Of a stretch of 64,000 nucleotides of DNA, positions 27,070-50,178 are shown piece by piece (position 1 is the first letter of the stretch; each line of letters starts with the position of its first letter). Position numbers and translations under genes: made by a program. The notes beneath the pieces are model-generated. The model made no database searches and was not told the origin of the DNA. It saw nothing but the letters and a program-made list of their open reading frames with translations. The DNA is from a virus, in IMG/VR virus record IMGVR_UViG_3300025450_000016. One strand, 5' to 3'.

Positions 27070-27080
27070 TGATTTTTCCT

Positions 27081-27647
27081 TTACCAAATATCCGATGGAA
27101 TTTCTGTGGCCCTGAAGCCTTGATACAAACTGTATCTTTTGTCTACTACAAAATTTTTCATACCGTGTGGTGTACGTGTTGGATACAACATCATATAACC
27201 ACAATTGGGGCGGAATGGTACTGTGTGCCAGGCATCCTGGTCGTAACAGTAGGTTCCCATATTTTCATTGCCTTCAGACAAATACACCTGCACATTGACA
27301 TAATGATTTGGGCTTACATCACCATCGTGTATGGTATTGATATATCCATCAGGGTCACGCCATAATTGCGGATTGTTTTGATACAACTTAACACCAGTAA
27401 CTGATTCAGCAAATTCAATAACAGGAGCTAGCTCAATGCGTATTTGTTCACACAAGTGGTTGTACAATGCCTCTGTTTCTTCTGTTTCTTCTGGGCGAAA
27501 CTGTAGTCTAGGAAAAGCAGAGTTGCCGTCATATTGTTTTAACCAATTGGTGGTGTCTCTGTCAAAGACTGACACCAACTGCTGGAACAAGCTGTTGCTA
27601 AAAACATTGTCAAGACGATAAAATTTTTCTGTAACTGTTACGAACAT
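27081..27647 (-). CDS. Putative 2OG-Fe(II) oxygenase
   Basis: LWRD.....HDGD, QVYL, GT, PF.PN.GY, distal HG and R.SLY. Confidence 0.6.
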   Translation of the reverse strand: MFVTVTEKFYRLDNVFSNSLFQQLVSVFDRDTTNWLKQYDGNSAFPRLQFRPEETEETEALYNHLCEQIRIELAPVIEFAESVTGVKLYQNNPQLWRDPDGYINTIHDGDVSPNHYVNVQVYLSEGNENMGTYCYDQDAWHTVPFRPNCGYMMLYPTRTPHGMKNFVVDKRYSLYQGFRATEIPSDIW

Positions 27648-29113
27648 ACTCGTGCTCCATAGTGCATTTCAAAACGATCAGCATCTTCTCTGTCGTTCAC
27701 AATGGGTTCACCTTTGATATTAAGACTGGTGTTTAACAGCATAGGACAACCTGTTACCACATACCATTTTTCTAACAGTTCTCTAATTCCCGAACCATCT
27801 CGTGGTACTGTTTGTATACGACTAGTGCCGTCGCGATGAACGATAGCAGGAAATAAGTCAGGATCCCTGCAACGACCGATGACTTGCATATACCTAGTGT
27901 CAACGAAACCGCTAGGCATATCAAAATACTCATTGACATATTCCTCCAAAATAACTGGCGCGAACGGTCTAAATTCTTGTCTACGTTTGATTGCATTTAC
28001 TTTGTCCTTTATATCTGGTCCTCTGGGGTCGGCGAGGAGACTTCTGTTTCCAAGGGCTCGGGGGCCAAATTCTGCTCTTCCGGAGGCCACCCCCACGAGT
28101 CTATCACTGAGTAAGCAATCAAGGACGGCATTAACAGGATACGGGCCGCTGATTTCTGTACCAAGGAATGCGTTTTTGAACTCAATTGGTCCGCCGTAGG
28201 CCAGTGCGGCTGCTCCGAGACTACTACCAGCATCGCCAGGATTAGGCATAATCCAAATCTTTTCAAAATACTCACCGAGGTTTCTATTTGCTAAACAATT
28301 AAGGGCTACACCGCCCTGATATACTAAATTTGTGCTCCAGCCAAAATCTTTGGCACGACGCATAACATTATATATCAAATTTTCACAAAAGGCCTGACTG
28401 GAACTGGCAATATCGTATTCCAAGTGCTTGGCCAAAAACTCTTCATCTACTCCTAGATGCAAATTTTGTGAAAATTCAATATTCCATTCGTTGGTCATCA
28501 CTGCCGATTTTATCTGTGCCGCGGCCTTGGGTTCTCCATAAGCAGCCATTCCCATTAGGATATATTCGTCTTCGTTGGGTTTCAATCCCACACGCTTGGT
28601 CATGGCACTATAAAATAGTCCTATGCTGTGCGGATATCGCTGACCCCACAGTCGCTTATACTCAGCACGACCATCAACATAGTGTGCGCCCCATATGGTA
28701 ATACTGTCCCATTCGCCAATGGCATCGATCACAACCACAGTGGCTCGATCAAATGGACTGGTTTGAAAACCAGCAGCTGCGTGACTCAGATGATGCCCGT
28801 GTGTGCTGATTGGAACATTGTCAAAATACCCACGTAACTGTTGCCTGAGTACTTGTCTAGTGGTCAGCTTGTTCCATTCTACACCTTGTCCCGAGTACCA
28901 CTGACGTAACTGCTTTTTCCAAGGAGTTTCGTAGTAGGCAATATGATCAATGTGGCGACCATCTGATAACTCCCAAAACATTGCAGGGTGCAGATTGGCA
29001 TCGTTTTTGATCTTGCTGTACCGTTCGGCGTGACCAGCGTACACTATTTCGCCATTGTTGATCACCGTGGCGGATGCATCGTGGAAACCGGCGCTGATTC
29101 CTAGTATGTTCAT
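27638..29113 (-). CDS. NodU/CmcH/TobZ-family O-carbamoyltransferase
   Basis: ILGIS..FHDA, HH.SHAA, DAIGE, GGVALN, GD.G, EFGPRALGNRS, FRPFAP, LLNTSLN..GEP. Confidence 0.95.
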   Translation of the reverse strand: MNILGISAGFHDASATVINNGEIVYAGHAERYSKIKNDANLHPAMFWELSDGRHIDHIAYYETPWKKQLRQWYSGQGVEWNKLTTRQVLRQQLRGYFDNVPISTHGHHLSHAAAGFQTSPFDRATVVVIDAIGEWDSITIWGAHYVDGRAEYKRLWGQRYPHSIGLFYSAMTKRVGLKPNEDEYILMGMAAYGEPKAAAQIKSAVMTNEWNIEFSQNLHLGVDEEFLAKHLEYDIASSSQAFCENLIYNVMRRAKDFGWSTNLVYQGGVALNCLANRNLGEYFEKIWIMPNPGDAGSSLGAAALAYGGPIEFKNAFLGTEISGPYPVNAVLDCLLSDRLVGVASGRAEFGPRALGNRSLLADPRGPDIKDKVNAIKRRQEFRPFAPVILEEYVNEYFDMPSGFVDTRYMQVIGRCRDPDLFPAIVHRDGTSRIQTVPRDGSGIRELLEKWYVVTGCPMLLNTSLNIKGEPIVNDREDADRFEMHYGARVCS

Positions 29114-29211
29114 TTATAGATAAATGGATCTCGTTTACGTAGTTCTTTTAATTTTTTACGATAACGTAATTCTAAAGTGATTTTATTGTAAAGATTTCGT
29201 AACCATTGCAT
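29110..29211 (-). CDS. 33-aa basic peptide ending RDPFIYK (not in ORF track)
   Basis: MQWLRNLYNKITLELRYRKKLKELRKRDPFIYK; its TGA overlaps the carbamoyltransferase ATG. Confidence 0.7.
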   Translation of the reverse strand: MQWLRNLYNKITLELRYRKKLKELRKRDPFIYK

Positions 29212-29998
29212 TGAATTGATCTTTCATTATGTGTGCTGCCGCTGTGTGTGCTGCTTCTAGTGGATGGGTAGTACCTATTGGGTATTTATTCTCCAAAGCC
29301 CACTGATAAAAACCTCTTGGGTCCGTTGTTTGTGTTGCTTCTGTTCCGGCTGGAAACCAAAACCAATTGGCTTGATCCCGGTGTATTTGTTCAGTTAGAC
29401 TATGTATGCTAGCATCTGCTGTTTGTATTGTATGATTGTACCATATGCAATTATCGGCACAGGTAAACAAATAAGGTATACTGTTGGTTTTTAAATAATT
29501 TTGTAAGTATGTAATTTCTTTGAGCGTGGTATAAATTTCCCAGTACTCGCTGTCGCCCACGTTCTTATAAAAGGATTTGGCAAAGTCGGCTATACCGTTT
29601 TCCTTGGCTTTGGTTATATTTTTAATTTGCTCATACAAAATATTGCTATTTTGATTTACAAATTCTTTTTCTATAGTTGCAGGATCATCCCGTACAGTCC
29701 ACGGAGTAATAGTATACCAAGGACTGCCGCGTTGATTGGTATGATAATTAAAGCGAAATTCATAGCGACCAGGAAAGGTCCACGATACTATCACAGCAGG
29801 ACGTTCAGGCCATATGGCTTCGCATTCAGCAATAACACGATGTGCTATGCCATCATTGCCTAAACCGGGCCAGGCCACGCATTGATACTGGTGTTCTTGA
29901 GACAACAAAGCCGCAAAGGTGCTTTGACTGTGTCTGCCGTTACAGTCTGCCAACTCGCTGCCGTATACGAAACTGTCACCTCCGGCTACTATAATCAT
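29183..29998 (-). CDS. SGNH-like protein
   Basis: GDSFVYG, PG.GN..I, WT...R.E, HP.E.AH. Confidence 0.7.
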   Translation of the reverse strand: MIIVAGGDSFVYGSELADCNGRHSQSTFAALLSQEHQYQCVAWPGLGNDGIAHRVIAECEAIWPERPAVIVSWTFPGRYEFRFNYHTNQRGSPWYTITPWTVRDDPATIEKEFVNQNSNILYEQIKNITKAKENGIADFAKSFYKNVGDSEYWEIYTTLKEITYLQNYLKTNSIPYLFTCADNCIWYNHTIQTADASIHSLTEQIHRDQANWFWFPAGTEATQTTDPRGFYQWALENKYPIGTTHPLEAAHTAAAHIMKDQFNAMVTKSLQ

Positions 29999-31055
29999 AT
30001 CCAGGCTTCATCATATCTATTTGCATTTGTTTGTAAGTGGAATCGCTCCAGCAGTAGTCGTACTGTTGTACAACTCCGTCAATTTCTATACGCTGTATGT
30101 CCAAGTGGCTGCCCAAGATGTCCCATATGGTCTTGTAGTCTGTGGTACCAAAACTGGCCTGTAGATCAATTTGACCCAGCGGCAGGTAACCCAGACTCAA
30201 CGTGGTATCGCTGGGATCTCTATTGTTTTTGATCAACCAAGATTCAAATTCTGTTTGTTCTTTGTCGTGCCAAGGGTGCCCGCCATTGCGAACAACATCA
30301 TTGCCCCACTCAACATCAAACTCGCCCGAGTAATATCTCAGTTCTGTAATAGCTTCGCATACTGTGTCAGTGAGTTCAGGTGCGTGTTCATCACGGAATA
30401 CTTCGTACAAAGTCTTACCTATCTGTGTCCAGTGCATATATACACCGCCCAACACACGATCATATCCGTTGATGCGAAAGCCCTCACGGTGCTCGGGTTT
30501 TAAATCATATCGACGTGCATTTATAAATGTGGTAATTTGACTGGGACGTACCCAATAAGGATCTGTGGCCAATTTGCGTTGACTCAAGATCAAGTTTTCC
30601 ATTTCGTGACAGATGTTGTTCAGTTGACGAATAGCATACTTGGTATCATAGTCAGCACGTTTGTACCACTCACTTAGTCCCCATACCGTACCTTGCAAGC
30701 GTTCAAAATGATTGTGTAACCGGTTCATCATATCGTGATTGATGCCGTTTTCGGCATAATCAAATCCAACTACATTTTTGGGGGTAAACAATTCCCAGAT
30801 AAAGTATTCACTGTTAAAGAAAAGATTAATGGTTCGTGTGTGTTGATTGAGTTCGTTACACAGATATTCCAGTGTGCGAGCAGTCTTGGGAAAACCCATA
30901 AAACAAAAGTTTTTTTCTAGTAGGTTACCAGACTCCAGTAGATCTCGCAGAGCCACTTGCCAATCTTGGGCCAGCGAGGTGTCGTTGGGAACGATAGTAT
31001 AGTCTACTTGATCGTTCCGGTCTAAAGGGTTACGCAATACTACTTTAATTGTCAA
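29976..31055 (-). CDS. Hypothetical protein with possible His/Glu metal site
   Basis: 359-aa coupled ORF; LHNHFE and CHEME motifs. Confidence 0.7.
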   Translation of the reverse strand: MTIKVVLRNPLDRNDQVDYTIVPNDTSLAQDWQVALRDLLESGNLLEKNFCFMGFPKTARTLEYLCNELNQHTRTINLFFNSEYFIWELFTPKNVVGFDYAENGINHDMMNRLHNHFERLQGTVWGLSEWYKRADYDTKYAIRQLNNICHEMENLILSQRKLATDPYWVRPSQITTFINARRYDLKPEHREGFRINGYDRVLGGVYMHWTQIGKTLYEVFRDEHAPELTDTVCEAITELRYYSGEFDVEWGNDVVRNGGHPWHDKEQTEFESWLIKNNRDPSDTTLSLGYLPLGQIDLQASFGTTDYKTIWDILGSHLDIQRIEIDGVVQQYDYCWSDSTYKQMQIDMMKPGYDYSSRR

Positions 31056-32355
31056 TTGAATCCCACCATTCGAGTGCTTGAGGTCTTAAGGACATGATGT
31101 CTCTAAAAGTATACTGGTCTTTTCGGATTTTTTCAAGTTCTAATATACGAGCTTTGCCCTTTCTGAGACCGGCTTCGTATTCTGCGGGCCACTGTTCAGC
31201 AAATGTGGGTCTAGTTTTTAGCTGGACAAGTATATCCCGTAACGGGCCGGTTAGAGGTTTACCCTCAGGAGTGCCATTCAGGATTTCGTCTACCCAGGGT
31301 TCCAAAATGGATCTGGGCAGGGCCAACGGCGACATAACAATGTCCGGGCTAAAACTAAAAACTACTTTGGCTAGTACGTCTACACCTAGTGTTTCTGCGA
31401 GCGATTGTATCGCTTGTACTTCAAAGAGTCCTGGTGTAGTAAGAGTGAAGTCCAAACGGATCTGGCGGCGGTGACTGTGGTACGCAAGTCCTTCGCGGAT
31501 GTTCTCAAGCCACTGATCAAAATCAAGACCTGATCTAATATACTCGCCAATTCGGCCCGTGCCATCGATGCTTGCACAGATTTGCCAGTCACGTAACCCA
31601 GATAGTATATCCCTAAACAAATTGATACCGCGATAATTGATGCGACTAAGATTTGTGTTATACCTAGCGTAAACATTTTTTCCATCTCCAAGTTCTATGA
31701 TCCGTTGCATATACTTCCAGTGTTGCTCGTACATCAACGGTTCACCTCCCACCCAATACACCTCTTCCACTCGGTGTTCCTCAACAGCAGTAGCAAACTC
31801 TTGCTCTACCTGGGTGTCTTGAAACTTTACTATTTGTTCTTTGACCTCAGGGCGCATCCAATGTGTATTAGGATTGTCCCAATCAATCATATTATGTTGT
31901 CGTTGCTCACTCTCCCAAGCACTCGACAGCATATCGCCGCACATACGGCATTTAAAATTACACAGGTTACTAAACCTATAATCCCACGAGACTGGCTTCA
32001 TTGTCGTGTAGCCCGTATCATCAGTATGTTCCAGGGCCTGTAAATACTTATGACCAAATAAACTGTTAAAATACGAGCGGTAAACGTCGGTATTCAGCAA
32101 CTTGCTGTTGCACACATCACATTCGGGCAAGGTTTCTCCGGCCATCATACGACGGCGCACACTTTTCATATGTTCACTGTTCCAATGCTCATCCAATGAA
32201 ATAGGTATGTACTTGCCGGTACCCGATGTAGTATCAATGTACTGTTGAAAATTCTGCGCAGGCTCTCTTGACGCACAACACATTCTACGCTCAGTTTGCG
32301 GGCTGAGATAGGTATGAGTCCAAGGTGCCATACAAAGTGTTGCTGGTTTATCCAT
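31045..32355 (-). CDS. Radical SAM protein with N-terminal twitch domain
   Basis: C.APW...CC...C..C, then CNFKCRMC, GGEPL, YNTN, SIDG. Confidence 0.93.
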   Translation of the reverse strand: MDKPATLCMAPWTHTYLSPQTERRMCCASREPAQNFQQYIDTTSGTGKYIPISLDEHWNSEHMKSVRRRMMAGETLPECDVCNSKLLNTDVYRSYFNSLFGHKYLQALEHTDDTGYTTMKPVSWDYRFSNLCNFKCRMCGDMLSSAWESEQRQHNMIDWDNPNTHWMRPEVKEQIVKFQDTQVEQEFATAVEEHRVEEVYWVGGEPLMYEQHWKYMQRIIELGDGKNVYARYNTNLSRINYRGINLFRDILSGLRDWQICASIDGTGRIGEYIRSGLDFDQWLENIREGLAYHSHRRQIRLDFTLTTPGLFEVQAIQSLAETLGVDVLAKVVFSFSPDIVMSPLALPRSILEPWVDEILNGTPEGKPLTGPLRDILVQLKTRPTFAEQWPAEYEAGLRKGKARILELEKIRKDQYTFRDIMSLRPQALEWWDSIDN

Positions 32356-33313
32356 TTATAAATTCCATTAAGGGTTCGACTATTGACTGGTAGAACGATA
32401 CATCAACAGCAGATCTATTGTGAAACAAACTGGAATTGTGCGCCATTTTGTCTCGAGTTTCTTGACTGTATCCTTGCAGCTGATAATTTTTTATCTGTTC
32501 GTACACTAGATCCAATCGGTTGAGTTTGAAATCGTATGACTCGTCGAATAAATTACTGTATGTTTCAAACCCCGAGCGTTGTAAAAAATCCAATGTACCA
32601 ACTCCGCCCAGCATCACAAACGGTTGTTGTAATGCTAGAGGTTTCATTGTTTTTTCTGTGACAAATATTTCGTCTGTGTTCATTTGTGTTTCTACCACTA
32701 TGTTGATTTCTGTACGATTGTACCACGCAGGATTTATGTAACGATCCCATCTATCCCAATACTCTTTGTGTCCGGGGCTGTCGTGTTCAATATCGCCATC
32801 GATACGCACTCCACGATCAACATAACTGTATAGTCCTTGCTCCAAGATTGGAGTAAACTTGTTGTATATATCGTCTCTAAAAGGTCTAGCAAAATTCATC
32901 ATCAGCAAAAACTTTTTGTCTGGTGTGTAGGTACGTTCTACTGTGTAGTTGCTCAATCGATTTTCGTGATACCAAAAATACAACGGAACTTCCAAGGTAT
33001 TTGGTGGAGTATTTGTGCTCTCTGATCCAACCACGTGCAACACCGTTGTTTCAGTATGCGACGAACTGCTTTGTTTTTCCAACAGCGACTCAAACACCAA
33101 TCGATAACCATCCCCGACCAATTGATCAACAGTTGTTTTATTTTTGTGATATTGATAATGATTGCACACAAACAAGGTTGATTGTTTGTCGTATGCACGG
33201 TGCGGATCATAGAATTCAAAATCAAAAGCCTGACCAATTATACTACGATACTCTAATAAGGTTATCTGTGTATAGTTGTTGTGATCCCAAAAACCAACCA
33301 GTTTAATCTTCAT
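32348..33313 (-). CDS. GT10-like TEK-motif glycosyltransferase
   Basis: IVVET......FVTEKT.KP.....PF...G......L...GF......FDESYD. Confidence 0.6.
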   Translation of the reverse strand: MKIKLVGFWDHNNYTQITLLEYRSIIGQAFDFEFYDPHRAYDKQSTLFVCNHYQYHKNKTTVDQLVGDGYRLVFESLLEKQSSSSHTETTVLHVVGSESTNTPPNTLEVPLYFWYHENRLSNYTVERTYTPDKKFLLMMNFARPFRDDIYNKFTPILEQGLYSYVDRGVRIDGDIEHDSPGHKEYWDRWDRYINPAWYNRTEINIVVETQMNTDEIFVTEKTMKPLALQQPFVMLGGVGTLDFLQRSGFETYSNLFDESYDFKLNRLDLVYEQIKNYQLQGYSQETRDKMAHNSSLFHNRSAVDVSFYQSIVEPLMEFING

Positions 33314-34520
33314 ATCCCATTGCTCTGGCTATTTCAGGGTGCGTGTCCAAGAAGTTTTGTTTGCGGTGTGCATCGGTACGTTGCATCTTAAACAAAAATT
33401 CCGATCCGTCGCTGCCTGAACCTAATTCAATGAAATTGATTATGTTGTTGATTTCTCGTTGATAATGACTGTTTTTCCAAAATGTAGTTTTTAATTTGTT
33501 TAACACCAGTTCATTGGCAGCCGGAGTCATACGTTGTATGCTCATATGATCAGGACTGTGCATCATATTGAAATAAATGTCTCCAAACCCTTTGGTGTCG
33601 GCCCAGTCTAGTAATTCATCCAAGTAATAGACATTTTGAATATTGACAGTAAAACACAACTGTGTGGTGATATTGGGTGTGTCAACACGTTTGGCAAAGT
33701 GTACATCGTCGATAATTTTATTTGCCAAATCCCACTTGGCCCCGTAGCGTTCATATTCAAAACGATCGCCTACGTTGTCAATACTGAACGCAATATCTAC
33801 ACGACCAAATTGATTCCAAATCTGTGTGTTTTCACTCAGTTCCTGCGTGGCATTGGTGTTGTAGTGTATGTCAATGTTCTTGCTGTAACCCAAGGCAGCC
33901 GCATATCTCAGTAGATCAAAATGCTCTTGTATCATCCAGGGTTCACCACCGGTAAATTCAAAATACTTGATGTTGGGCAATAGTTCACGTAGGTTGTCCC
34001 AGAAGATTGTTGTTTTGCGTGGCCAGGCACCGGCCTTTAGCCAGGTGTAGGCAATGTGACTCTTCTTATCAAAGTCTTTGGGCATATATGCTAATTCTTC
34101 TTCGGCCCACTTGCTGCTTGACCACGATCCACAAATACGACATTTGAGATTGCAGATGTTACCCAACTTCAAATCCACAAACCATAGCTGGTCAGGATTA
34201 TCGTTCGCCCAGTCAACCTTGTCGTACAAGTGCTTGAGTCTAACTTGACTATGGATGCGTTTGCTGTCGCGGCCGGCAGCTTCTTCATCCCAACAACGAC
34301 TACAGGTTGCTGGCTTTTCCCCGGCACGAAACTGTCTACGTAGATTTTGCATATACTCGCTGTGATATGCAGTTTCCAAGTTGGTTTCATTTAGATCGTA
34401 TTTTTTACCTGTGGCATCAACTATTTCCTCGTGTGCCATACAGCAAGGACGTGTAGTGCCCATCGGGCTGGTCTCAATGGAGATCCAAGGTAACATACAA
34501 ATTGTTTTAGGTAACGTCAT
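33303..34520 (-). CDS. Radical SAM protein with N-terminal twitch domain
   Basis: CMLPW..RPCC..CSRCW; CNLKCRIC; GGEP; YNTN. Confidence 0.93.
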   Translation of the reverse strand: MTLPKTICMLPWISIETSPMGTTRPCCMAHEEIVDATGKKYDLNETNLETAYHSEYMQNLRRQFRAGEKPATCSRCWDEEAAGRDSKRIHSQVRLKHLYDKVDWANDNPDQLWFVDLKLGNICNLKCRICGSWSSSKWAEEELAYMPKDFDKKSHIAYTWLKAGAWPRKTTIFWDNLRELLPNIKYFEFTGGEPWMIQEHFDLLRYAAALGYSKNIDIHYNTNATQELSENTQIWNQFGRVDIAFSIDNVGDRFEYERYGAKWDLANKIIDDVHFAKRVDTPNITTQLCFTVNIQNVYYLDELLDWADTKGFGDIYFNMMHSPDHMSIQRMTPAANELVLNKLKTTFWKNSHYQREINNIINFIELGSGSDGSEFLFKMQRTDAHRKQNFLDTHPEIARAMGYED

Positions 34521-35712
34521 ACCGCATTGCTTTTGCTATTTCTGGATGTGTGTCTGCAAAATTTTCTCCACGGATACGATCCAACTGTTTCATTTCCTCA
34601 CGGAATCTGACTCCGTCTTTGCTTTCAGCATTGTTGATAAAATCAATTATTTGATCAATTTCGCGACGGTGGCGGTCAATAAATTTGCCTGAGTTTAATT
34701 TTTCAATTACCAATTGTTTTGCTTCCGGCGGCATTGTACCAATACTCAAATAGGCCGCTTCGTGAACTAATCCAAAGTTTTCGTGATCAAAGTCTTGTTC
34801 GGCTATCCACGCACACAATTCCTCAAGATAATAAACATTTTGTATACTCACAGTAGGATTAACCTGTAGCTCTATATGTGGAAGACGAGCTTTCATTGCA
34901 CGAAATCTTTGTATGTTTGCATTGACTTCCGACCACTTGGCTCCTGAACGTTCTAGTTCAAAACGTTTGCCCAATCCGTCAATGCTAAATGCTATTTCAA
35001 CACGTTTGAAGTTTTTCCATAATTCTTCAGCACCTTCGGGGAATACAGTTCCATTGGTATTGTAAAATAAATGTTGATAACGACTGGAACCTGTGTCTAC
35101 GCTGTACTGCAACAGGTCAAAGTGTTCTTGAATCATAAAAGGCTCACCGCCAGTGAAATCTAAAAATTTAATCTTGGGTATCAAAGTTCGTACTTCTTCC
35201 CAAAATGTTGTACTGGTACGTGGCCATTCGCCTTCTACTAGCCAGGTCTTGCTTTGATGAGTTCGTCTTTCTTTGTATGGAACCTGCATTAGACTCTCCT
35301 GTGCCCACTTGCTGCTGATCATAGGACCACATATACGACATTTGAGATTGCAGATATTGCCCAATTTCAAATCCAAGTATAAAAAATGTTTAGGCACGAC
35401 AGTATTAAAATTTACCAAAGGCAACAGCATATTCATTTTCTGCAAATGATTAACACGTTTGCTGATTTTGCCCACAGCTTCCTCATTCCAGCAACGACGA
35501 CACGCTCGAGGTTTGCCACCATCAATGAATTCTTGTCGCAAATCTTTCATATAATTGCTGTGAAAGATTTCCATTATACTGTCGGTAGCAAGATTGTATG
35601 GAGTGCCATCATCACGTTTGATTACGTCCTCGCTAATGCAACAAGGGCGTACTGTGCCTACTGTGTTGGCAGCCAGACTGGTCCAAGGCAACATACACTT
35701 GTGATCAGCCAC
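34507..35712 (-). CDS. Radical SAM protein with N-terminal twitch domain
   Basis: CMLPW..RPCC..CRRCW; CNLKCRIC; GGEP; YNTNG. Confidence 0.93.
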   Translation of the reverse strand: MADHKCMLPWTSLAANTVGTVRPCCISEDVIKRDDGTPYNLATDSIMEIFHSNYMKDLRQEFIDGGKPRACRRCWNEEAVGKISKRVNHLQKMNMLLPLVNFNTVVPKHFLYLDLKLGNICNLKCRICGPMISSKWAQESLMQVPYKERRTHQSKTWLVEGEWPRTSTTFWEEVRTLIPKIKFLDFTGGEPFMIQEHFDLLQYSVDTGSSRYQHLFYNTNGTVFPEGAEELWKNFKRVEIAFSIDGLGKRFELERSGAKWSEVNANIQRFRAMKARLPHIELQVNPTVSIQNVYYLEELCAWIAEQDFDHENFGLVHEAAYLSIGTMPPEAKQLVIEKLNSGKFIDRHRREIDQIIDFINNAESKDGVRFREEMKQLDRIRGENFADTHPEIAKAMRYDVT

Positions 35713-37030
35713 CGTTTAATTCCTTAAATTCAGGAAATAAATCCCAGAAACATTCATTTCGTACTGCGTCTAGTTTGGCAGTTTCTTCTACAAACCGTGG
35801 CCAATGTTTGGTACCATCAGTGCCGCGCATTAGACTCAGTAAACTTTGATATCCTGTGGTAGCACGACGCAAACTGTCTTGTGGATCTAACCACTCAATA
35901 TGACGTTCATATGCCGGATAGATGACACGCTGTTTAAACTCCTCCGGGAAGATATCAATTCTATACCATTCGGGACTTTGGCAAATGTTGATATTCCAAT
36001 CCTTGGCTTGAATCAATCCCAACCGAGTCCATTCCTGATGGAAGTCCAGCACGTGTAGTACATTCATTGAGCTAACAGTTGAGCTTACATAAAAATCCAC
36101 GTGTGGCACTTCTGCCATCATACGTTCGCGGTTTTCTACTGTTTGACGCCAGTCTGCACCTTTGCGTATAAGTTCTGCTTGAGGACCCATACCATCTAGA
36201 CTAGCACCTACTGAAACATTCTTAAAGTGTTTCCAATATTCAAACACGTGCTTGTCTTTGTAACGCATTTCACTGAAGTTTGTATTGTATTGAATACGTA
36301 CATCAGTTTTGCCGGCATCAATTAGCTTTTCTAATAAAGCATAATGCTCTTTCATAATTAACGGCTCGCCGCCAGCAAAGTAAACCTGTTCTAGATACGG
36401 AACGTGCTCAAGCATTTGCTCTTGCATTGCATCCTCGTCTCCTGCAGCGTACTCCACTCGTGACATATCACGACCAAGCACATCTGGAACGCGGTTATAT
36501 AACTTAACGTGATCGTTGTACCAGTTGCTACTGAAAATAGGACCGCAGGAACGACAGCGGAAATTGCAGAGATTACTAAAACGCACATCCCAATACCTAA
36601 TCTTGAATTCAGGATGTGTGCCATCATCTTGTGTCGCATTTGTTTCCTTAATTAAATGTCCGTAGTTACGATTACTATCGTTACGCATACTAAACGCACC
36701 GTGCCGCTCTTGCTCGTAGCACTTGGTACATTCTTTACTGGGTTGATCTGCAAGCATATTGACACGCAACTGCCGGTACCGGTCTTGGTTCCACACTTCT
36801 CGCATTGTGTGTTGACGTAAGTCGCCCACTGGATGCCAATAGTCAGCCAAACAGCAAGGATACACACGACCGTCTGGGAAGGCGTGCATATGAGTCCAAG
36901 GCAACATACAGAATGTTTCGCTCTGAGTCAAGCGATGCCACTCTTGTTCTGTCAATTCTGTGCGTTCAATGAAATAAGGCGCACGAGCATTGTAGTCGTA
37001 ACCCTTGTTGTAAAAATCTTGTTTGCTCAT
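35705..37030 (-). CDS. Radical SAM protein with N-terminal twitch domain
   Basis: CMLPW..YPCC..CTKC; CNFRCRSC; GGEPL. Confidence 0.93.
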   Translation of the reverse strand: MSKQDFYNKGYDYNARAPYFIERTELTEQEWHRLTQSETFCMLPWTHMHAFPDGRVYPCCLADYWHPVGDLRQHTMREVWNQDRYRQLRVNMLADQPSKECTKCYEQERHGAFSMRNDSNRNYGHLIKETNATQDDGTHPEFKIRYWDVRFSNLCNFRCRSCGPIFSSNWYNDHVKLYNRVPDVLGRDMSRVEYAAGDEDAMQEQMLEHVPYLEQVYFAGGEPLIMKEHYALLEKLIDAGKTDVRIQYNTNFSEMRYKDKHVFEYWKHFKNVSVGASLDGMGPQAELIRKGADWRQTVENRERMMAEVPHVDFYVSSTVSSMNVLHVLDFHQEWTRLGLIQAKDWNINICQSPEWYRIDIFPEEFKQRVIYPAYERHIEWLDPQDSLRRATTGYQSLLSLMRGTDGTKHWPRFVEETAKLDAVRNECFWDLFPEFKELNGG

Positions 37031-38376
37031 AACGTGTTGTACCAGCCTGCCAAGGCAGGAAATGTTGCTGTGAAGTTTTTACCGCGACGCTGGTCATACT
37101 GTGTATAAAACTTCTTAAAGTCTTGTTGTAGTACTGATTGTTCTGCAGCATCTGCGTGTGGTGTTTTGACCACATCCAAATAGTCAATCAAGCGTTGCAG
37201 TTGATTGCGTTCATACTCGTGCAAGAATTCGTCATTGCTGTTTGTGTCTAACCAATCTTGCAAGCGAATTTTGTAGTGTGTTCGTAATACATCTGGAAGA
37301 ACCAGTGGACTTTGAAAACTTGGAAATCTTAAAATATTTAGCGAGAAACTAGGGAAGTTCTTTCCGTACTCACGTTTCCAATTCATACAGCACTCTAAGA
37401 AACTGTCTAGTGTGTCTAAACACAAGGCATTGATAGTACACATCACGTGGAAGCCACGTAGTTTACCTGAGTCCATAATCTTTTCACAGTTGTTGGCCCA
37501 GTCGTCCCAGACAAGTCCATCGCGTATGTATTCGGCTTGTAGACCGATGCTTTCATTACTGGTATATAAGTCAACAGTGACTCCATCAATGGCTGCTAGC
37601 AAACGATTTACGTCTACATCAGTACCTAGGTTACTGTTAATAGCAAGACGTGTAGAACTCTTGCCTTTGTTAGTTTTAAACCATTCAATTAGTTTCCAGG
37701 TCTCTGGCGACATAAGTGGCTCACCGCCAGTGATACGTAATTCTTTTAATGTTCTGTGTAGATCTGTTTCCCACCATTTGTGAAATGCTTCTACATACGG
37801 GTTAACTTCGCCGAAGCGATAAAGTTGACTGCTATCGTGAGGGTGAGTAAAGTGGTTGCGGCCGTCGCTAACCAATTGGGTGTATGGCCCGTGTTGCTTA
37901 AGGTCACGTACCCAGCTACTACTAAAAGCAGGGTTGCAGTAGCTACAAGCAAATTGACAGGTACGGTCAAACGCGATTTCAAGTGTTTGTAAATCCACAT
38001 CTTCTTCTGCAGGAGTGTTGTAAGCAAGATCCAAATCCTTATCATCATATATAACAGTTTTGTACACACGGTCACTGATGTTGTCGCGACCAATGTCTTC
38101 AATCTTCCAACAGTATTCGCAACCGACAGGACGTTCGCCCCGTTGCATTTGAGCACGTTCTGATTTCTTTTTAGCGGTATTATGTAATGCCTTGGGATTG
38201 GCACGTACTTCGTCAACACTAACCTGATGTGGCAACGGGTGATGGCAACTAGTAGTTTGCCCTGACCCTAACCATATAGTAGCATTGTACCATTTGGCTC
38301 CGCAGAAGCTTTCCGACTTGATGTCGATCACCCGGCGTTTGTATTCTAAATCGGTTTCATTGTTAATTCTGGGCAT
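37027..38376 (-). CDS. Radical SAM protein with N-terminal twitch-like domain
   Basis: CGAKW..SCHH..CEYCW; CQFACSYC; GGEPL. Confidence 0.92.
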   Translation of the reverse strand: MPRINNETDLEYKRRVIDIKSESFCGAKWYNATIWLGSGQTTSCHHPLPHQVSVDEVRANPKALHNTAKKKSERAQMQRGERPVGCEYCWKIEDIGRDNISDRVYKTVIYDDKDLDLAYNTPAEEDVDLQTLEIAFDRTCQFACSYCNPAFSSSWVRDLKQHGPYTQLVSDGRNHFTHPHDSSQLYRFGEVNPYVEAFHKWWETDLHRTLKELRITGGEPLMSPETWKLIEWFKTNKGKSSTRLAINSNLGTDVDVNRLLAAIDGVTVDLYTSNESIGLQAEYIRDGLVWDDWANNCEKIMDSGKLRGFHVMCTINALCLDTLDSFLECCMNWKREYGKNFPSFSLNILRFPSFQSPLVLPDVLRTHYKIRLQDWLDTNSNDEFLHEYERNQLQRLIDYLDVVKTPHADAAEQSVLQQDFKKFYTQYDQRRGKNFTATFPALAGWYNTL

Positions 38377-39748
38377 AGTATCGGCATTCGTTCCAAAATT
38401 CCCGCATCTCTGGGAAAGTTTCTAAAAAGTCGGTGTTGCGTCGTTGATCGTGTTCGTGGAAAAATCTATAAAAATCTGCACGTTGTAGTTTAACATATCC
38501 TGGATCCAAATTGCGACCTTCCTTCATCCAATCAATATCGCGGCGCATACGTTGTACTTCGTAGTCCTTGAATCCGTGAAATGGATCTTCGGCAGTTTCC
38601 AAATTCAGTTCCATCCAGTCAGCCACACGTTCCAATACCCCCACGTAAACTTCAGGCAAGATTTGTAAACTTTGCCAACGCGGTTGACGTAGTAACGGAG
38701 TATCAAACCAAACACGTTGATATGTGGTACTGTGCGTTCTGCGTAGACTCAAAATATAATCTAGCTGTCGTTGTAAACCCAATACGCTTAGGTTATTCAT
38801 TGTGATAATAAATGTAAGACTGTTGCGATAAGGAACTTCTGTCAGGTAACGTTCAACATAGCTGACCAGACGATTCATATTCAAACCGTTGCGTATGTAT
38901 TCTGCGTGAGCTGGTATACCTGAGTCTAAACTCACGTACTGCATAAAGTGTTCAATTTGAGTTGAACACAAGCGTTTTACATAATCTAGATAGCGTTCAA
39001 ACAATGCTGGTTCTACGCTGAAGTTTGATGTCACATTCAGGTGCAATTCAGGATTAGGCAAGGCCAACACATAGTCAAATACCTTGAATGTGTTACGATC
39101 CATCAGGGGTTCGCCACCGGTCATACGGAAATGTTTCAGTTGCGGATAAAGTGTAGGCCACCAGGCCCAAAATGCATCAACATAAGGATTATCTTGGGAA
39201 TGAGGAATAGGCCTGTTGCGACCAACAAAATGGCTAGCATCGTTATGAACAGTACTGGTTGGGTATCCGCCAAACCTATCAACTTCTTGCTGCCAGCTAC
39301 TACTAAACTGGGGACTACAATAACTGCATTTGAGATTACACGCATGATTAAAGTTAACTTCGACGTACGACGGAACAACGTCGTCTTCATTTCCGGCACT
39401 GGATCTAATAGGTTCATAATCTTCTGCTGCCCAAGGCTCTCCTGATCTATAATGTCTATCGCTTAGGTTACCCAAGTCTTCTTGTGTCCAGCAATAGCTA
39501 CATTCTTGTGGACGTTCGTCTTTGAGCATAATAACACGTTGCTTTTTCTTATGCTCGGTATTGTGTAATGCACCCGGATTGTCTTTTAATACTGCGGGAT
39601 CAATTTGATGCAAGGGCGGATGATAGCAACTGTTGTTGAGTCCTGTAGGCAAGTGTAGACTCACCTGTTTCCATTTGGCCAAACAGAGTGCTGGTCCTAA
39701 TTTTTCTTTCATCTGCTCAGCGGCAGACATAAAGTCGCTTTTACTCAA
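38363..39748 (-). CDS. Radical SAM protein with N-terminal twitch-like domain
   Basis: CLAKW..SCYH..CSYCW; CNLKCSYC; GGEPL. Confidence 0.92.
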   Translation of the reverse strand: MSKSDFMSAAEQMKEKLGPALCLAKWKQVSLHLPTGLNNSCYHPPLHQIDPAVLKDNPGALHNTEHKKKQRVIMLKDERPQECSYCWTQEDLGNLSDRHYRSGEPWAAEDYEPIRSSAGNEDDVVPSYVEVNFNHACNLKCSYCSPQFSSSWQQEVDRFGGYPTSTVHNDASHFVGRNRPIPHSQDNPYVDAFWAWWPTLYPQLKHFRMTGGEPLMDRNTFKVFDYVLALPNPELHLNVTSNFSVEPALFERYLDYVKRLCSTQIEHFMQYVSLDSGIPAHAEYIRNGLNMNRLVSYVERYLTEVPYRNSLTFIITMNNLSVLGLQRQLDYILSLRRTHSTTYQRVWFDTPLLRQPRWQSLQILPEVYVGVLERVADWMELNLETAEDPFHGFKDYEVQRMRRDIDWMKEGRNLDPGYVKLQRADFYRFFHEHDQRRNTDFLETFPEMREFWNECRYYAQN

Positions 39749-40458
39749 ACCAAGTTTCTCTCTTTAAGGTTAGCAATAAGGTATTTGACAAATTCTGTAT
39801 GCGCTTCAGGACCGGGATGGGTTGGATCGGCCCAGCTGTCAATTTCGCCAGCAATCTTGTGCGGAGTTTGTAACACTAGGTTTTGTTTGTCGATCATATC
39901 ATACAAGTGTGAATTGACTCGCAGATCTTTTAACTCTCTCACAGAACAAAACAGGTATGGCTGATTCATTGATTTTAATACACCTTGCAGTCCTATAATT
40001 TTGGTAAGACTTCTATGATAATGGCTTTCATAATCGGTATGATTGTAAAATTCGTCAAACAGTTGTTTGACGCTTTCACCTTCGTTATTGATGTAACCGC
40101 AACCAAATACCCAATCCTTTTCCACATAGTCTTGATCGTTTTCAGGCCAAATAACTTTGCTGGGCCAATCATTCTGTCGGCTTTGATATAGGCTGGTGTA
40201 AGTAGTATCAGCAAATTTGGTGATGTCTCTGACTTTGATATCAAACCGTCTAAAGTCGCACCACATGACCATTACTAGATCGTATTTTCTTTGTGCTAAC
40301 TCGGATATGGTAGTGGCATAGATATATTCGTTACCTGCTCCGGCCTGTGCAAGATTGATAATATCGCACTCGATATTTTGTTCCAGTTGCTCTTGTAGTA
40401 TATAAGGCCACGATCCAGCACCTCTAGCAACACTGGGTCCATTGACTAAAATTTTCAT
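39745..40458 (-). CDS. SGNH-like protein
   Basis: NGPS..G, NLA..GAGN.YI, W....R.D, D..HPG..AH. Confidence 0.7.
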   Translation of the reverse strand: MKILVNGPSVARGAGSWPYILQEQLEQNIECDIINLAQAGAGNEYIYATTISELAQRKYDLVMVMWCDFRRFDIKVRDITKFADTTYTSLYQSRQNDWPSKVIWPENDQDYVEKDWVFGCGYINNEGESVKQLFDEFYNHTDYESHYHRSLTKIIGLQGVLKSMNQPYLFCSVRELKDLRVNSHLYDMIDKQNLVLQTPHKIAGEIDSWADPTHPGPEAHTEFVKYLIANLKERNLV

Positions 40459-41355
40459 TTAAAATCTCCTGGGTAATTGTGGGCCGGCCCATACACGGCC
40501 AAGTGGTTGTTTGGTCATTATCATTTCATTCACTGTATTGGTCCACTCTACTGTATTGCTGTTAATTTCTATTTCAGGTGCTACCGTATTCAAGTACAAC
40601 AAGTATTCGGCTGGCATTGGATGTGTGTTGGTTCTAAATAACAAACGCTTGCTGAATTGATGTTTTTCGTTGATCTCTACCTTGACACGATTGTCGACTC
40701 CACTAAAGTCCTGCTGAACAAATTGTTCCCACGTTGGCCAATTGGCGCCACGTAAAACTGTGTATTCTTGTTCAAGTCCTTTTATGTCTACATACCCCTT
40801 GCGACTGTACCAATCAAAATTGAATATTGCTTCGTATACGCTGGGTTTAACTGCAGCTAGTTCGTTGGCGTATAGTGTGGTTATTTCGTTGTCTATACTA
40901 AAAATTTTAAAAATATTATCATCAGGTACATTAAACGGCACTATACTAAAAAACTTGTACTCACAGCCAATTGAATCCAGTACAGCTTTAGCCGCAGACA
41001 AGTGTGCCATATCTCGAATTAGGTAGCCGGTGGGGTCGGCAAATTTTGCAACAAAATCTTCGCTGTAGGTTGTTTGATTATAGATACTACCCGGAGTAAT
41101 CCATTGTTCACTTGCAACCCAACGGTCCTCGCGGCCTATGCTGCTCCACATAATCATCACAACATCATCCCGGGTGATACGGTTACGTTTGTGGCATTCC
41201 ATTAGGCTATAAAAAATAAAACTATTGCCTGCACCATCTTGTCCCCAATTGGAATACGATTTGTACTGACGTCCCACTATGTCGGCCCAGGTTGGATAGT
41301 ATATGCTGTTAGTAAAGCTACAGCCAAATGCAAAGAATCTTTGATCTTGTTTCAT
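40459..41355 (-). CDS. SGNH-like protein
   Basis: FGCSFT, W.D, GAGN, MWS...RED, C-terminal HP. Confidence 0.7.
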   Translation of the reverse strand: MKQDQRFFAFGCSFTNSIYYPTWADIVGRQYKSYSNWGQDGAGNSFIFYSLMECHKRNRITRDDVVMIMWSSIGREDRWVASEQWITPGSIYNQTTYSEDFVAKFADPTGYLIRDMAHLSAAKAVLDSIGCEYKFFSIVPFNVPDDNIFKIFSIDNEITTLYANELAAVKPSVYEAIFNFDWYSRKGYVDIKGLEQEYTVLRGANWPTWEQFVQQDFSGVDNRVKVEINEKHQFSKRLLFRTNTHPMPAEYLLYLNTVAPEIEINSNTVEWTNTVNEMIMTKQPLGRVWAGPQLPRRF

Positions 41356-42191
41356 TTTGTAATTACGTTATTGTAATGTAAAACTATGCTTTCGTCATCC
41401 TTGGCTGTGGGGCACATAGTACATACACGATGTGGTCGACCATAATTGTTGAGGAATGCTGCAATTGCCTCATCTGGGCTATCGGGTGTAATGTACTGCC
41501 CGCGATATGGTTTCCACGCCGGATCTGTTATGCCAAAACGATCTAGTGTTTGTTCTAACCCGCCCAACGTACTACACTTGTACAACTTGCCCTGAAACAT
41601 CAGCGGACATTTTTGTTGCATACAAATTTCAAACGATTCTGCTGGATTACTATTAAACGGCATCATATTTGGATAGTCGTTCTTATAGTACTTGATAAAT
41701 GTCAGTGGGCGATTGACTTGAAATCGCAGGCCGTTTGTGGTCTTGTAACGATAGATGCCAAACTCGTACACAGGTTCCCATTTGTACATTGAAAATATTT
41801 TGCGTATCACTGCTTCTACACGCTCACTGTGTTGATGTGCAGTAATCTTAAAAACAAAGTTACCCACTTCGTGTGCTGTTTCTAATACATCCAAGTGTCG
41901 GTCCAGCAGTTCACCGTTGGTACTAAAGCGTATGGGACTTGTAGGCAACAGTTCTCTTAGTCCACGTATCCATTGCTTGAGCTCGGGATTGATCAAGGGT
42001 TCGCCGCCCATGATGCCAAAGTCTTCGATATCCATACGTGGCAACCAAGATTCAATTTCTCTGCGACCGTCCTCCCATTTGACATAACCTGTGTGCTTTA
42101 GGTCAGCGTAATTGCTGCACCCAAGACAACTTAGATTACAGAATTGTGTAACCATCATTTCTACAAACGGCAAGTGGTGTTTAGTTGTCAT
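41352..42191 (-). CDS. Radical SAM protein with C-terminal Cys cluster
   Basis: CNLSCLGC, GGEPL, TNG; C....C.....LYKC...C..C. Confidence 0.9.
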   Translation of the reverse strand: MTTKHHLPFVEMMVTQFCNLSCLGCSNYADLKHTGYVKWEDGRREIESWLPRMDIEDFGIMGGEPLINPELKQWIRGLRELLPTSPIRFSTNGELLDRHLDVLETAHEVGNFVFKITAHQHSERVEAVIRKIFSMYKWEPVYEFGIYRYKTTNGLRFQVNRPLTFIKYYKNDYPNMMPFNSNPAESFEICMQQKCPLMFQGKLYKCSTLGGLEQTLDRFGITDPAWKPYRGQYITPDSPDEAIAAFLNNYGRPHRVCTMCPTAKDDESIVLHYNNVITK

Positions 42192-43248
42192 TTACAAAGA
42201 TCTTTTCTACAGTGGTAGTAGTCAACGACAAAAGTGTTTGATAGTTGTGCTCAAATATTTCTTGCATATCTGCAAGTGCTCGGGCCATTTCAGCCGGAGT
42301 CCAACGACTTATTGTTTCTAATAATTTACTAACTTCGTGAATACGATTGGCTAATCCGTACTCGTCGTATCCTTCATCCCAATACTTGTTAAAAGTACAA
42401 AATCCTAAACGACGAAGATTGGCCAAATGATTGCGAGGAGTAACTGAAACAAAAGGTCTACGTGCAATCATTGGTCGCCAGGTCTTTTCAGTACAAAAGA
42501 AAACACCATCGGCCATATAAGTTTCGTGTGCCACATCAACAAAAATTGAATTGTAATAATTCAGTATGTTTAAATTGTTAGGCATCTGTATAGGATAACA
42601 ATCTTGACTTTGGTTGATGTAGTTGCCTTTGCCAGAGATAAACTCCACGTCCTCGGCAATGGTTCTAGGGCAGTCTTGTAAAAACGCAACCACCTCAGGC
42701 AATATGTCACAACCAAACTCAACCAAATCTTCTAGTCCCACGTAATCAACAAGGTCCTCGGATTTTCTCAGATAATGTGTGCCTATTCCGCAATTATAAG
42801 TTTGCAAAGTTTTGTCTGCGTAACGACTGTGTAACAATGCAGCTGTCCATAATCGGTTCCAGTTACTTTTGCCAACAAAATGACCAAAATGATATGTTGG
42901 AGCAAATTCTGGTGTGACAGGATTTTGTCTTATCCATCCACGTATGCGAGTCAGTTCATACCAGGCTGTGGCCACACGTTGTATCTGATACGATTCATGA
43001 TTCTCCAGCATATTGCCAGTGCGTATGGTAACACGCTGTTTGGCATAACCGGTATGATCGCAAAATCTATCTAGTACATTGTATAGACCATTGGCTCTAA
43101 ATGATGCTGCTTCGGGAGTGATGTCAATCACAATGTTTTGATCGTTTTTTAAACAATCGTACATATAGTGTACCAGGGCATCTTTTAACCAAGTCTTGTA
43201 GTCGCTGCCGGCGGCCACACGATATGATCCAGTTGTTTCATTCAACAT
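42181..43248 (-). CDS. GT10-like TEK-motif glycosyltransferase
   Basis: HET......FF.TEKTWRP.....PF......L..LR.LGF.TF..YWDEGYD. Confidence 0.6.
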   Translation of the reverse strand: MLNETTGSYRVAAGSDYKTWLKDALVHYMYDCLKNDQNIVIDITPEAASFRANGLYNVLDRFCDHTGYAKQRVTIRTGNMLENHESYQIQRVATAWYELTRIRGWIRQNPVTPEFAPTYHFGHFVGKSNWNRLWTAALLHSRYADKTLQTYNCGIGTHYLRKSEDLVDYVGLEDLVEFGCDILPEVVAFLQDCPRTIAEDVEFISGKGNYINQSQDCYPIQMPNNLNILNYYNSIFVDVAHETYMADGVFFCTEKTWRPMIARRPFVSVTPRNHLANLRRLGFCTFNKYWDEGYDEYGLANRIHEVSKLLETISRWTPAEMARALADMQEIFEHNYQTLLSLTTTTVEKIFVNDN

Positions 43249-44191
43249 AATTTATGGTTTTTGAAAACTTTTTTTCGATTAGTAAATTGTAATTGTGATC
43301 TAGTATTGGTTGCATATCAGCGTACATTTGTGCCAGCTGATCTGTTGATCGAGACGATAGCGTATCAATAAGATCGAGAATCTTAGTATATTTATGTTTA
43401 ATTCCGTAGCCATCATAGTCTTCATTCCAGAAGCTGCCAAATGTTCTAAAGCCCATTTGTCTTAGATGTATCAGGTGGCATTTTGGTCCCATTGTTATAA
43501 ACGGTTTTTTTAACAGCATTGGGCGAATGGTTTTTTCTGTGGGAAAAAAATTACGTCCATTCACAAAAGTTTCAGCCACTATGTCTATTAGAAAGTCTTG
43601 ATAAAAATTGGCCAATTGTTCTGTGTGCTGTTGAGTTGACACCCCAATGGTGTAACCATCTTGATTTTCAATTTGTACAGGGAAATGATCGGCGGCCAAT
43701 AAAAAGTTCCGGGCCGATGGCAAATCAATTTCAAACAATCGTTGCATTTCAAATAACCGGCGGTCAACATCGTCGTGTGGATTAGAACGAAAATTAATTA
43801 CAGATTTGTCTGCGTGGTTAATTTGCAAATGCCCAGCAATGCCCATACGATTCCACGTGGCTCGATTATACAATGCACCAAATATTTTTCGACGATTCCA
43901 AACCTGATACGGTGTATAGTCTGTGTTGCCAGTGGTATAAAAGAATCTAAAAGCCGAATCGTGTACACGTATTTGATAAACCGGGTGATACTCAACCACG
44001 TTACCAGTCACAATAGTTACCGATTTGAATCTAAAACAATCCAGCAGTTCGTATATGCCCAGGGATTCCAAACACCCACCTTCGTAGTTGGTATTTAGAA
44101 TAATATTTTGATCTTGATTGCGAGCCAAAAAGGCAATCAGCTCCAGCCGATTGAATATATGGTTATCGTTGATGTTTAAAAATAGCGTCAT
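43238..44191 (-). CDS. GT10-like TEK-motif glycosyltransferase
   Basis: VAET......FPTEKT.RP....KPF...G......LR.MGF.TF..FW.EDYD. Confidence 0.6.
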   Translation of the reverse strand: MTLFLNINDNHIFNRLELIAFLARNQDQNIILNTNYEGGCLESLGIYELLDCFRFKSVTIVTGNVVEYHPVYQIRVHDSAFRFFYTTGNTDYTPYQVWNRRKIFGALYNRATWNRMGIAGHLQINHADKSVINFRSNPHDDVDRRLFEMQRLFEIDLPSARNFLLAADHFPVQIENQDGYTIGVSTQQHTEQLANFYQDFLIDIVAETFVNGRNFFPTEKTIRPMLLKKPFITMGPKCHLIHLRQMGFRTFGSFWNEDYDGYGIKHKYTKILDLIDTLSSRSTDQLAQMYADMQPILDHNYNLLIEKKFSKTINYVE

Positions 44192-50153: not shown

Positions 50154-50170
50154 CTTCTATCCTTTGATAA

Positions 50171-50178
50171 TATTTATG
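50171..50178 (-). promoter_or_regulatory. Late promoter-like CATAAATA
   Basis: Intergenic, just upstream of fibre ATG 50153; similar motifs at 52176-52183 and 55808-55815. Confidence 0.55.

Follow-up and report, generated by a model that had tools for sequence, protein, structure and literature searches.

The 64,000-nucleotide stretch analysed here (the window) corresponds to bases 9735-73734 of a 133,207-bp IMG/VR virus record, IMGVR_UViG_3300025450_000016. On its minus strand it carries seven open reading frames (ORFs) for radical S-adenosylmethionine (SAM) proteins, hereafter R1 to R7, at the positions noted in a preliminary description of the sequence, and each overlaps a neighbouring gene. 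The record is estimated by CheckV to be 38% complete, and contigs with close relatives of the window proteins measure 354-364 kb, indicating that the virus is a jumbo phage of ~350 kb. The seven genes are as follows.

31045-32355, minus strand: R1, N_Twi_rSAM protein, core orthogroup, with a deep sister relationship to the R4 type (NF033640, 293 bits)
33303-34520, minus strand: R2, N_Twi_rSAM protein, core orthogroup, of a type fused C-terminally to the R4 type in other organisms (NF033640, 335 bits)
34507-35712, minus strand: R3, extra divergent N_Twi_rSAM protein of the R2 type (NF033640, 350.8 bits)
35705-37030, minus strand: R4, N_Twi_rSAM protein, core orthogroup, the commonest type across bacteria (NF033640, 398.5 bits; PF13186 at residues 41-105)
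37027-38376, minus strand: R5, N_Twi_rSAM protein, core orthogroup, sister type of R6 (NF033640, 295.6 bits)
38363-39748, minus strand: R6, N_Twi_rSAM protein of the C.AKW / SC.HP subtype, core orthogroup (NF033640, 290.5 bits)
41352-42191, minus strand: R7, short accessory radical SAM protein (279 aa) encoded in a variable slot, its C-terminus carrying a Cys cluster (PF04055, 53.5 bits)

R1-R6 belong to the N_Twi_rSAM family (NCBIfam NF033640, twitch domain-containing radical SAM protein; 398 model positions, cut-off 170 bits). Their alignments span model positions ~1-397, and none of the remaining NCBIfam models, whose cut-offs range from 131 to 650, exceeds 31 bits. R7 reaches 30.5 bits on NF033640 and is not a member, and no NCBIfam model exceeds its own cut-off on this protein; its CxxxCxxC motif spans residues 18-25, and its C-terminus has five Cys, the cluster that the preliminary description had pointed out. 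In R1-R4 the Pfam SPASM domain (PF13186) lies N-terminally, ahead of Radical_SAM; R5 and R6 give no PF13186 match, yet the same four N-terminal Cys are present. These residues (C41, C60, C101 and C104 in R4 numbering) are invariant in R1-R6, as are the core motifs C155/C159/C162 (CxxxCxxC) and G220-G221-E222-P223. The six proteins contain four or five Cys before the core, too few for the seven-Cys SPASM motif, and lack a Cx2Cx5Cx3C block; the number of N-terminal Cys therefore suggests one auxiliary cluster, that is, a twitch rather than a full SPASM domain. In the AlphaFold2 model of R4 (predicted local distance difference test, pLDDT, 93.8), C41 lies before a beta-hairpin and C59/C60 behind it, and a helix begins at C101/C104. 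Such a hairpin-then-helix arrangement of Cys is reportedly the SPASM/twitch topology, as attributed to Grell et al. in 2015. From these motifs we infer that the N-terminal Cys of R1-R6 bind an Fe-S cluster. The unusual N-terminal position of the twitch was thus correctly seen in the preliminary description and overstated as a novelty, the architecture being already curated by NCBIfam as NF033640. Literature searches on the family name, on N-terminal SPASM/twitch domains and on phage radical SAM glycan clusters returned no characterised member, and the searchable literature yielded no description of a phage radical SAM array in a glycan cassette. A heavy demand on the Fe-S and SAM supply of the host can fairly be expected from such an array; flavodoxin and 2Fe-2S ferredoxin genes were not found in the 133-kb fragment, which represents only ~38% of the genome and is thus uninformative in this respect.

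The six proteins had been described as three paralog pairs, and the motifs quoted for these pairs are all present. Pairwise identity is 45% for R2/R3, 31% for R5/R6 and 28% for R1/R4. In a maximum-likelihood tree of 94 rows, comprising window copies, phage relatives and bacterial arrays, R5 and R6 form sister clades (Shimodaira-Hasegawa-like approximate likelihood ratio test, SH-aLRT, 100), R1 and R4 are sisters (SH-aLRT 98), and R2 and R3 fall into one clade (SH-aLRT 97). The tree indicates that the sister pairs reflect real kinship, with splits of very different ages. Each of the five types (R6, R5, R4, R2/3 and R1) forms a clade containing phage orthologs and one member of an eight-gene array (L024) from a Bacteriovoracaceae metagenome-assembled genome, with R6 grouping with L024 12859-14337 and R1 with L024 7401-8756 (SH-aLRT 100 for both). 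The types therefore appear to be older than the exchange of the module between phages and bacteria. By this phylogeny, the R5/R6 and R1/R4 splits predate the sharing and R3 is a one-off extra copy of the R2 type; no R3 ortholog above 44% identity was found in 47 related loci. The natural units thus appear to be five old orthogroups rather than three pairs.

The idea that the members of a paralog pair work as heterodimers finds no support. Among the best relatives of R4, four natural fusions of double length (P0121, P0123, P0126 and P0156) have an N-terminal half that is R4-like (33-55% identity) and a C-terminal half that is R2/R3-like (31-46% identity; for P0121 and P0123, 46% and 40% to R2), and no fusion joining R1 and R4 types or R5 and R6 types was found. 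This Rosetta-stone signal links R4 to R2/3 and not to its paralog partner. An R4 gene followed by an R2/3-type gene is also the arrangement in the window, in the phage relatives and in L024. A complex prediction for R4 and R2, each entered as an alignment, scored 0.00 and was counted neither for nor against binding. From sequence comparison, the present analysis thus contributes the fusions between R4 and R2/3 types and a Bacteriovoracaceae array that matches the five types one to one.

The radical SAM genes are part of a block of ~22 tightly packed, mostly overlapping genes that runs on the minus strand from 47094 down to 26233 (the cassette). Its other members are listed below.

44188-47094, minus strand: GT2l, u121 (an unassigned 121-aa protein), GTA2 and GTA1, the conserved cassette head (weak Glyco_tranf_2_3 match; DxD motifs)
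42181-44191, minus strand: two paralogous glycosyltransferases of the GT-B class, F355 and F317 (mutual identity 31%)
39745-41355, minus strand: S237 and S298, SGNH/GDSL-like proteins (G.S block and D/T..H block by eye)
32348-33313, minus strand: F321, GT-B glycosyltransferase-like with a GT10-like TEK motif, in a variable slot (C-terminal block common to F317 and F355)
29183-31055, minus strand: u359, a conserved unassigned protein after R1, and S271, SGNH-like with a GDS block (position conserved in relatives)
27638-29211, minus strand: carbamoyltransferase and an overlapping 33-aa ORF ending PFIY (Carbam_trans_N, E 6e-38; Carbam_trans_C, E 3.5e-46)
26233-27647, minus strand: Ox188 (HxD...H, 2-oxoglutarate (2OG) oxygenase-like by eye) and KinNT, the cassette tail (KinNT: APS_kinase, E 8e-7)

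To place the cassette in a wider context, we compared 47 related phage and phage-like loci, retrieved with an alignment of R4-type proteins (a six-paralog profile being too divergent), of which ~45 hold enough of the cassette for its gene order to be read. The order runs u317-GTA1-GTA2-u121-GT2l-(variable)-R6-(variable)-R5-R4 and continues (variable)-R2-(variable)-R1-u359-S271-S237-carbamoyltransferase-KinNT. Across the ~45 contigs this backbone is conserved and the slots for glycosyltransferase, SGNH and extra radical SAM genes vary. Close phage relatives preserve the five radical SAM types at 56-87% identity, and orthologs in related phage contigs are 51-87% (R6), 58-86% (R5), 56-87% (R2) and 48-85% (R1) identical. 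R7, S298, F355 and F317 occupy a variable slot, and relatives of R7 are confined to three loci (L001, L002 and L011). Old paralogs that are conserved one by one in this manner bear out the sub-functionalisation proposed in the preliminary description. A 98%-complete relative (354 kb) encodes 12 family members, of which the array accounts for five and the other seven are dispersed. The same cassette was also observed on phage-like contigs binned into bacterial metagenome-assembled genomes (MAGs), one of 2.5 kb in a Polynucleobacter MAG (L006) and two of 148 and 183 kb in a Haliscomenobacter MAG (L011 and L013), which reflects either mis-binning or a hint at the hosts.

GT2l, GTA1 and GTA2 have DxD motifs and weak GT-A matches; GTA1 and GTA2 are paralogs, and the gene order of this head is kept in nearly all related contigs. 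For F317, an AlphaFold2 model (pLDDT 90.9) was compared by fold, the family profile of the paralogs F317, F355 and F321 having given nothing meaningful against PDB sequences; its top Foldseek matches are nearly all GT-B transferases, as are the 24 highest VIA rows. F321 has a weak GT10 lead (Atlas PF00852, score 0.84). From their motif blocks, S237 and S298 are likely glycan O-acyl transferases or esterases. Among the accessory-gene orthologs scanned, 15 match DUF6071, 11 Lipase_GDSL_2, six Lipase_GDSL and one ALGX, and these are most likely S-type members (S271/S237-type). No lead was obtained for u359, including from Atlas, and a PHROGs scan of eight accessory genes gave no match. KinNT, conserved in relatives, is a P-loop kinase fused to a nucleotidyltransferase-like domain with an HxGH motif in the C-terminal third, and such a fusion could activate a sugar. 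With the listed TTG start it would overlap Ox188 by 124 nt, and for this reason the true start is probably an ATG near 27069, just ahead of the P-loop. The Cys-free 33-aa ORF (29110-29211, minus strand) overlaps the start of the carbamoyltransferase gene, and a small ORF partner of the carbamoyltransferase may be conserved: in a Fluviicola-like locus (L124), a 49-aa DUF5989 gene lies near the carbamoyltransferase gene with one 124-aa gene between them.

Directly upstream of the cassette, positions 48420-64000 hold tail-fibre-like genes with matches to Phage Tail Collar, Peptidase_G2, a Gly-rich domain and CBM5/12. The encoded fibre proteins contain 0-0.4% Cys and 17-26% Ser+Thr, and the region includes the following ORF.

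55814-64000, minus strand: a very long fibre-like ORF of >2,727 aa that runs off the window (sole match CBM5/12; 0.1% Cys, 18% Ser+Thr)

In every related phage contig the cassette likewise adjoins fibre-like genes, in the late structural region. Because R1-R6 sit in a sugar-handling operon beside tail-fibre genes, glycan editing is their most likely role, and on balance we favour radical tailoring of carbohydrate within a soluble phage glycan cassette. We infer the carbohydrate substrate, the reaction type and the acceptor as follows. R1-R6 would constitute the radical-chemistry module of a soluble, phage-encoded cassette for glycan assembly and tailoring (~47094-26233). The [4Fe-4S] cluster held by CxxxCxxC would cleave SAM to the 5'-deoxyadenosyl radical, which would abstract hydrogen from a specific sugar C-H, and the twitch [4Fe-4S] cluster (C41, C60, C101 and C104) would handle the substrate-radical electron as in BtrN-type enzymes, giving a net oxidation, epimerisation, or dehydration/deoxygenation. 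Each of the five orthogroups might carry out one distinct step, with the R4-type and R2/3-type enzymes working together or consecutively, and R3, R7 and the interleaved GT-B and SGNH genes could provide strain-variable decoration. The acceptor would probably be cytoplasmic, since the cassette encodes no membrane segment, flippase or polymerase: either a nucleoside diphosphate (NDP)-sugar or a glycan on a virion protein, most plausibly the adjoining Ser/Thr-rich fibres.

A different destination for the tailored glycan would be the phage DNA itself. Phages are known to glycosylate DNA (bioRxiv 10.1101/2023.12.21.572611), and in the VIA comparison F317 scores best against T4 DNA beta-glucosyltransferase (Z 9.8), T4 alpha-glucosyltransferase also being matched, at Z 8.1. 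These scores, however, tie with those of fucosyltransferases and OGT (H. pylori alpha-1,3-FucT 9.2, OGT 8.8 and FUT9 8.6). Only one canonical ThyA is encoded, both in this record and in the 98%-complete relative, and no TET/JBP match was obtained, though the same search matched in no control genome either. Neither radical SAM nor carbamoyl steps are mentioned in bioRxiv 10.1101/2023.12.21.572611, and the bacterial homologs lie in non-phage glycan or metabolite loci. DNA hypermodification is accordingly the explanation to which we give very little weight.

The bacterial members of the family provide an independent view of its context. In a library of 1.84 billion proteins, the relatives of R4 comprise 10,896 cluster representatives at E<=1e-3 and 1,585 at E<=1e-30; in another search, homologs of R4 at E<=1e-10 numbered over 5,000. 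Matches to R4 at 35-42% identity come from Bdellovibrionota, Bacteroidota, Acidobacteriota, Myxococcota and one Elusimicrobia MAG. Bacterial arrays comprise up to eight genes, and N_Twi_rSAM proteins typically occur as arrays of old paralogs. Frequent neighbours are other radical SAM genes with an N-terminal SPASM domain (N-SPASM), UbiA-GT4/GT1-GDSL fusions (eight loci), carbamoyltransferase (five), SDR (five), GT2 (four), GDSL-TPR (four) and ABC ATPase genes (four); by another count, a carbamoyltransferase gene adjoins an N_Twi_rSAM gene in seven bacterial loci. One bacterial operon consists of an NTP_transferase gene, then 11 radical SAM genes, then GDSL and AsnB genes; P0159 is a GT2-N_Twi_rSAM fusion; and the Fluviicola-like locus combines carbamoyltransferase, DUF5989 and glycosyltransferase genes with three N-SPASM radical SAM genes and several 2OG oxygenase genes. 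The sole homolog from a cultured isolate, in Agaribacillus aureus (L123), is a lone gene beside a LiaF/His-kinase pair, a context that is uninformative. In the Elusimicrobia MAG (MJ-2014_bin-0981) we observed dozens of ORFs of 600-1,100 aa containing N_Twi_rSAM, in head-to-tail arrays on many contigs (L042, L047, L048, L054, L064, L070, L080 and L081), an expansion that far exceeds that of the phage; the purity of this bin as bacterial may be doubtful.

The UbiA-glycosyltransferase fusions and ABC transporter ATPases beside the bacterial relatives are consistent with lipid-linked or exported products, and would suit an arrangement in which the modified sugar or glycolipid is fed into the host envelope, causing serotype conversion or superinfection exclusion and leaving the virion undecorated. 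Further NDP-sugar enzymes, which also speak for carbohydrate tailoring by the cassette, lie elsewhere in the window, where the toolkit genes were observed to be interleaved with those for the canonical ThyA and DHFR.

3918-10443, minus strand: NDP-sugar toolkit of two epimerase/dehydratases, a DegT aminotransferase, a PIG-L deacetylase and two GDSL paralogs (38% identity)

Against delivery to the envelope, none of the 22 cassette proteins contains a hydrophobic 19-mer above a Kyte-Doolittle value of 1.6, and no initiating phosphoglycosyltransferase, flippase or polymerase was found within the cassette. In addition, all relatives carry the cassette among their late structural genes, and the phage is large, with no sign of lysogeny in the window. 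We therefore regard modification of the host envelope as improbable.

Comparison with characterised radical SAM enzymes found no specific tie of R1-R6 to a sugar family or to a non-sugar family. Foldseek and VIA comparisons of the R4 model retrieve generic radical SAM cores only (TM score ~0.35, Z <=12.6), with BlsE (Z 12.6), CteB (12.3), SkfB (12.3), anSME (11.8), MoaA (11.6), viperin (11.3) and DesII (10.9) among the matches. Cytosylglucuronate decarboxylase BlsE (PDB 7VOB) is the best of these, over 221 residues at a root-mean-square deviation of 3.8, and BlsE and DesII act on sugar nucleosides or NDP-sugars; their match to R4, however, covers the core barrel only at 14-18% identity and is tied with those of peptide maturases, and the BlsE model TIGR04466 gives 15.6 bits against a cut-off of 400. 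BtrN, NeoN and AprD4 resemble R1-R6 in having one auxiliary [4Fe-4S] cluster on a half-SPASM domain beside the radical SAM core, and in their carbohydrate context. In these enzymes, in contrast, the twitch is C-terminal, the reverse of the order in all six phage proteins, and the substrates are small aminocyclitols or sugars of antibiotic clusters. Neither BtrN nor NeoN is among the listed PDB sequence or fold matches, AprD4 has a Z of 7.6, and sugar enzymes tie with non-sugar ones. The proposal of sugar tailoring by analogy with BtrN and NeoN thus gains from the genomic context in the phage, its relatives and bacteria, which favours carbohydrate, and remains an analogy with respect to the enzymes themselves. 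An N-terminal auxiliary cluster is also present in the radical SAM tetraether lipid synthase Tes/GDGT-MAS (PMC9433317), which compares with R4 at Z 11.3; Tes is archaeal, has a lipid substrate and other extra domains, and its model NF045702 gives at most 20 bits on R1-R6 against a cut-off of 450. Within NF033640, R1-R6 are identical in architecture to the rest (N-terminal twitch Cys, CxxxCxxC, GGE order), and the phage case is set apart by the five-orthogroup array, with its extras, inside a phage glycan cassette.

Several observations weigh against the tailoring of carbohydrate by R1-R6. The substrates of most SPASM/twitch enzymes characterised so far are peptides or proteins, and no N_Twi_rSAM member with an established substrate was found in the literature. 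The predicted fold of R4 does not separate sugar enzymes from those acting on peptides, lipids or nucleotides. Fusions to TPR, Sel1 or ankyrin repeats, usually protein-binding modules, are frequent in the family. The best-matching bacterial array, the eight-gene Bacteriovoracaceae one (L024/L083), has no glycosyltransferase gene inside and contains, in its middle (L083 12469-12801, plus strand), a gene for a secreted 110-aa protein that combines a signal peptide with Cys-rich Sel1-like repeats and could be a protein substrate or scaffold. The virion fibres, named as the most plausible acceptor from gene position and the absence of membrane steps, are themselves a tentative choice that may well be wrong.

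The prevalence of peptide and protein substrates, the repeat fusions and the Cys-rich Sel1-like protein, together with the fibre genes that adjoin the cassette, would be accommodated if R1-R6 modified proteins directly, by cross-links, epimerisation or side-chain C-H oxidation in, for example, the tail fibres or a different virion protein, and the glycosyltransferases acted separately on the same protein. A precedent exists in CrpC, a SPASM radical SAM enzyme that cross-links a whole Cys-rich protein (PMC13692751, 2026). SPASM maturases (CteB, SkfB, anSME and CrpC) resemble R1-R6 in their radical SAM core and in having a Cys motif of the SPASM type, with Z of 11.8-12.3, but have the SPASM/twitch domain at the C-terminus and often an N-terminal RiPP recognition element (RRE; RiPP, a peptide made on ribosomes and modified post-translationally) and a nearby precursor gene, none of which was found for R1-R6. 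No PqqD/RRE domain was matched by Pfam, and maturase models remain far below their cut-offs (StsB 27 versus 625 bits, PapB 28 versus 340, SkfB 22 versus 300 and DynA 15.7 versus 450). No Cys-rich or leader-like precursor protein was found in the window besides the Cys-free 33-aa ORF, and the fibres are almost Cys-free. The bacterial neighbours, moreover, are repeatedly glycosyltransferase, GDSL, carbamoyltransferase and NTP-transferase genes. Direct modification of protein therefore appears to us an unlikely though serious competitor.

If R1-R6 indeed edit sugars, the phage would encode radical carbohydrate chemistry on a scale not known in primary glycan synthesis; if they edit proteins, they would represent a new maturation system for virion parts. 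In either case N_Twi_rSAM is a very large family, and a well-defined gene set for co-expression is available in the core of five orthogroups, the fusions of R4 with R2/3 types and the compact cassette of soluble proteins. A bolder version of carbohydrate tailoring, which we put forward as a speculation with the probability against it, holds that the five-enzyme module is shared as a unit between widespread ~350-kb freshwater phages and predatory Bdellovibrionota, and makes serial radical C-H changes on a cytoplasmic glycan of fibre proteins. Were this true, protein glycans tailored by radical chemistry would form a class for which no counterpart has been described, one in which variable radical SAM, glycosyltransferase and SGNH genes diversify the glycan between strains in the manner of O-antigen loci.

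The array gave no megablast match to a phage collection, and tblastn with R4 retrieved only radical SAM proteins 21-23% identical, in Vibrio and Ralstonia jumbo phages. The moraphage lineage (PMC12619734) was considered and set aside, as it is another lineage, of up to 307 kb, for which radical SAM is never mentioned. Within the window, at 15931-18966 on the minus strand, a short gap separates the gene for a MoxR-like AAA ATPase from that for a DUF2201 metallopeptidase/VWA-like protein, an arrangement resembling MoxR-VWA chaperone pairs. Outside the window, a second radical SAM cluster was observed at 87723-95320 of the record (C1, plus strand), ~14-21 kb past the window end; it includes two further N_Twi_rSAM genes of this phage and comprises the following.

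Record 87723-88154, plus strand: weak radical SAM match
Record 88676-90115, plus strand: N_Twi_rSAM protein of the R2/3 type with a ~95-aa N-terminal extension
Record 92995-94026, plus strand: 343-aa radical SAM protein with a C-terminal SPASM-like Cys block
Record 94016-95320, plus strand: divergent N_Twi_rSAM protein

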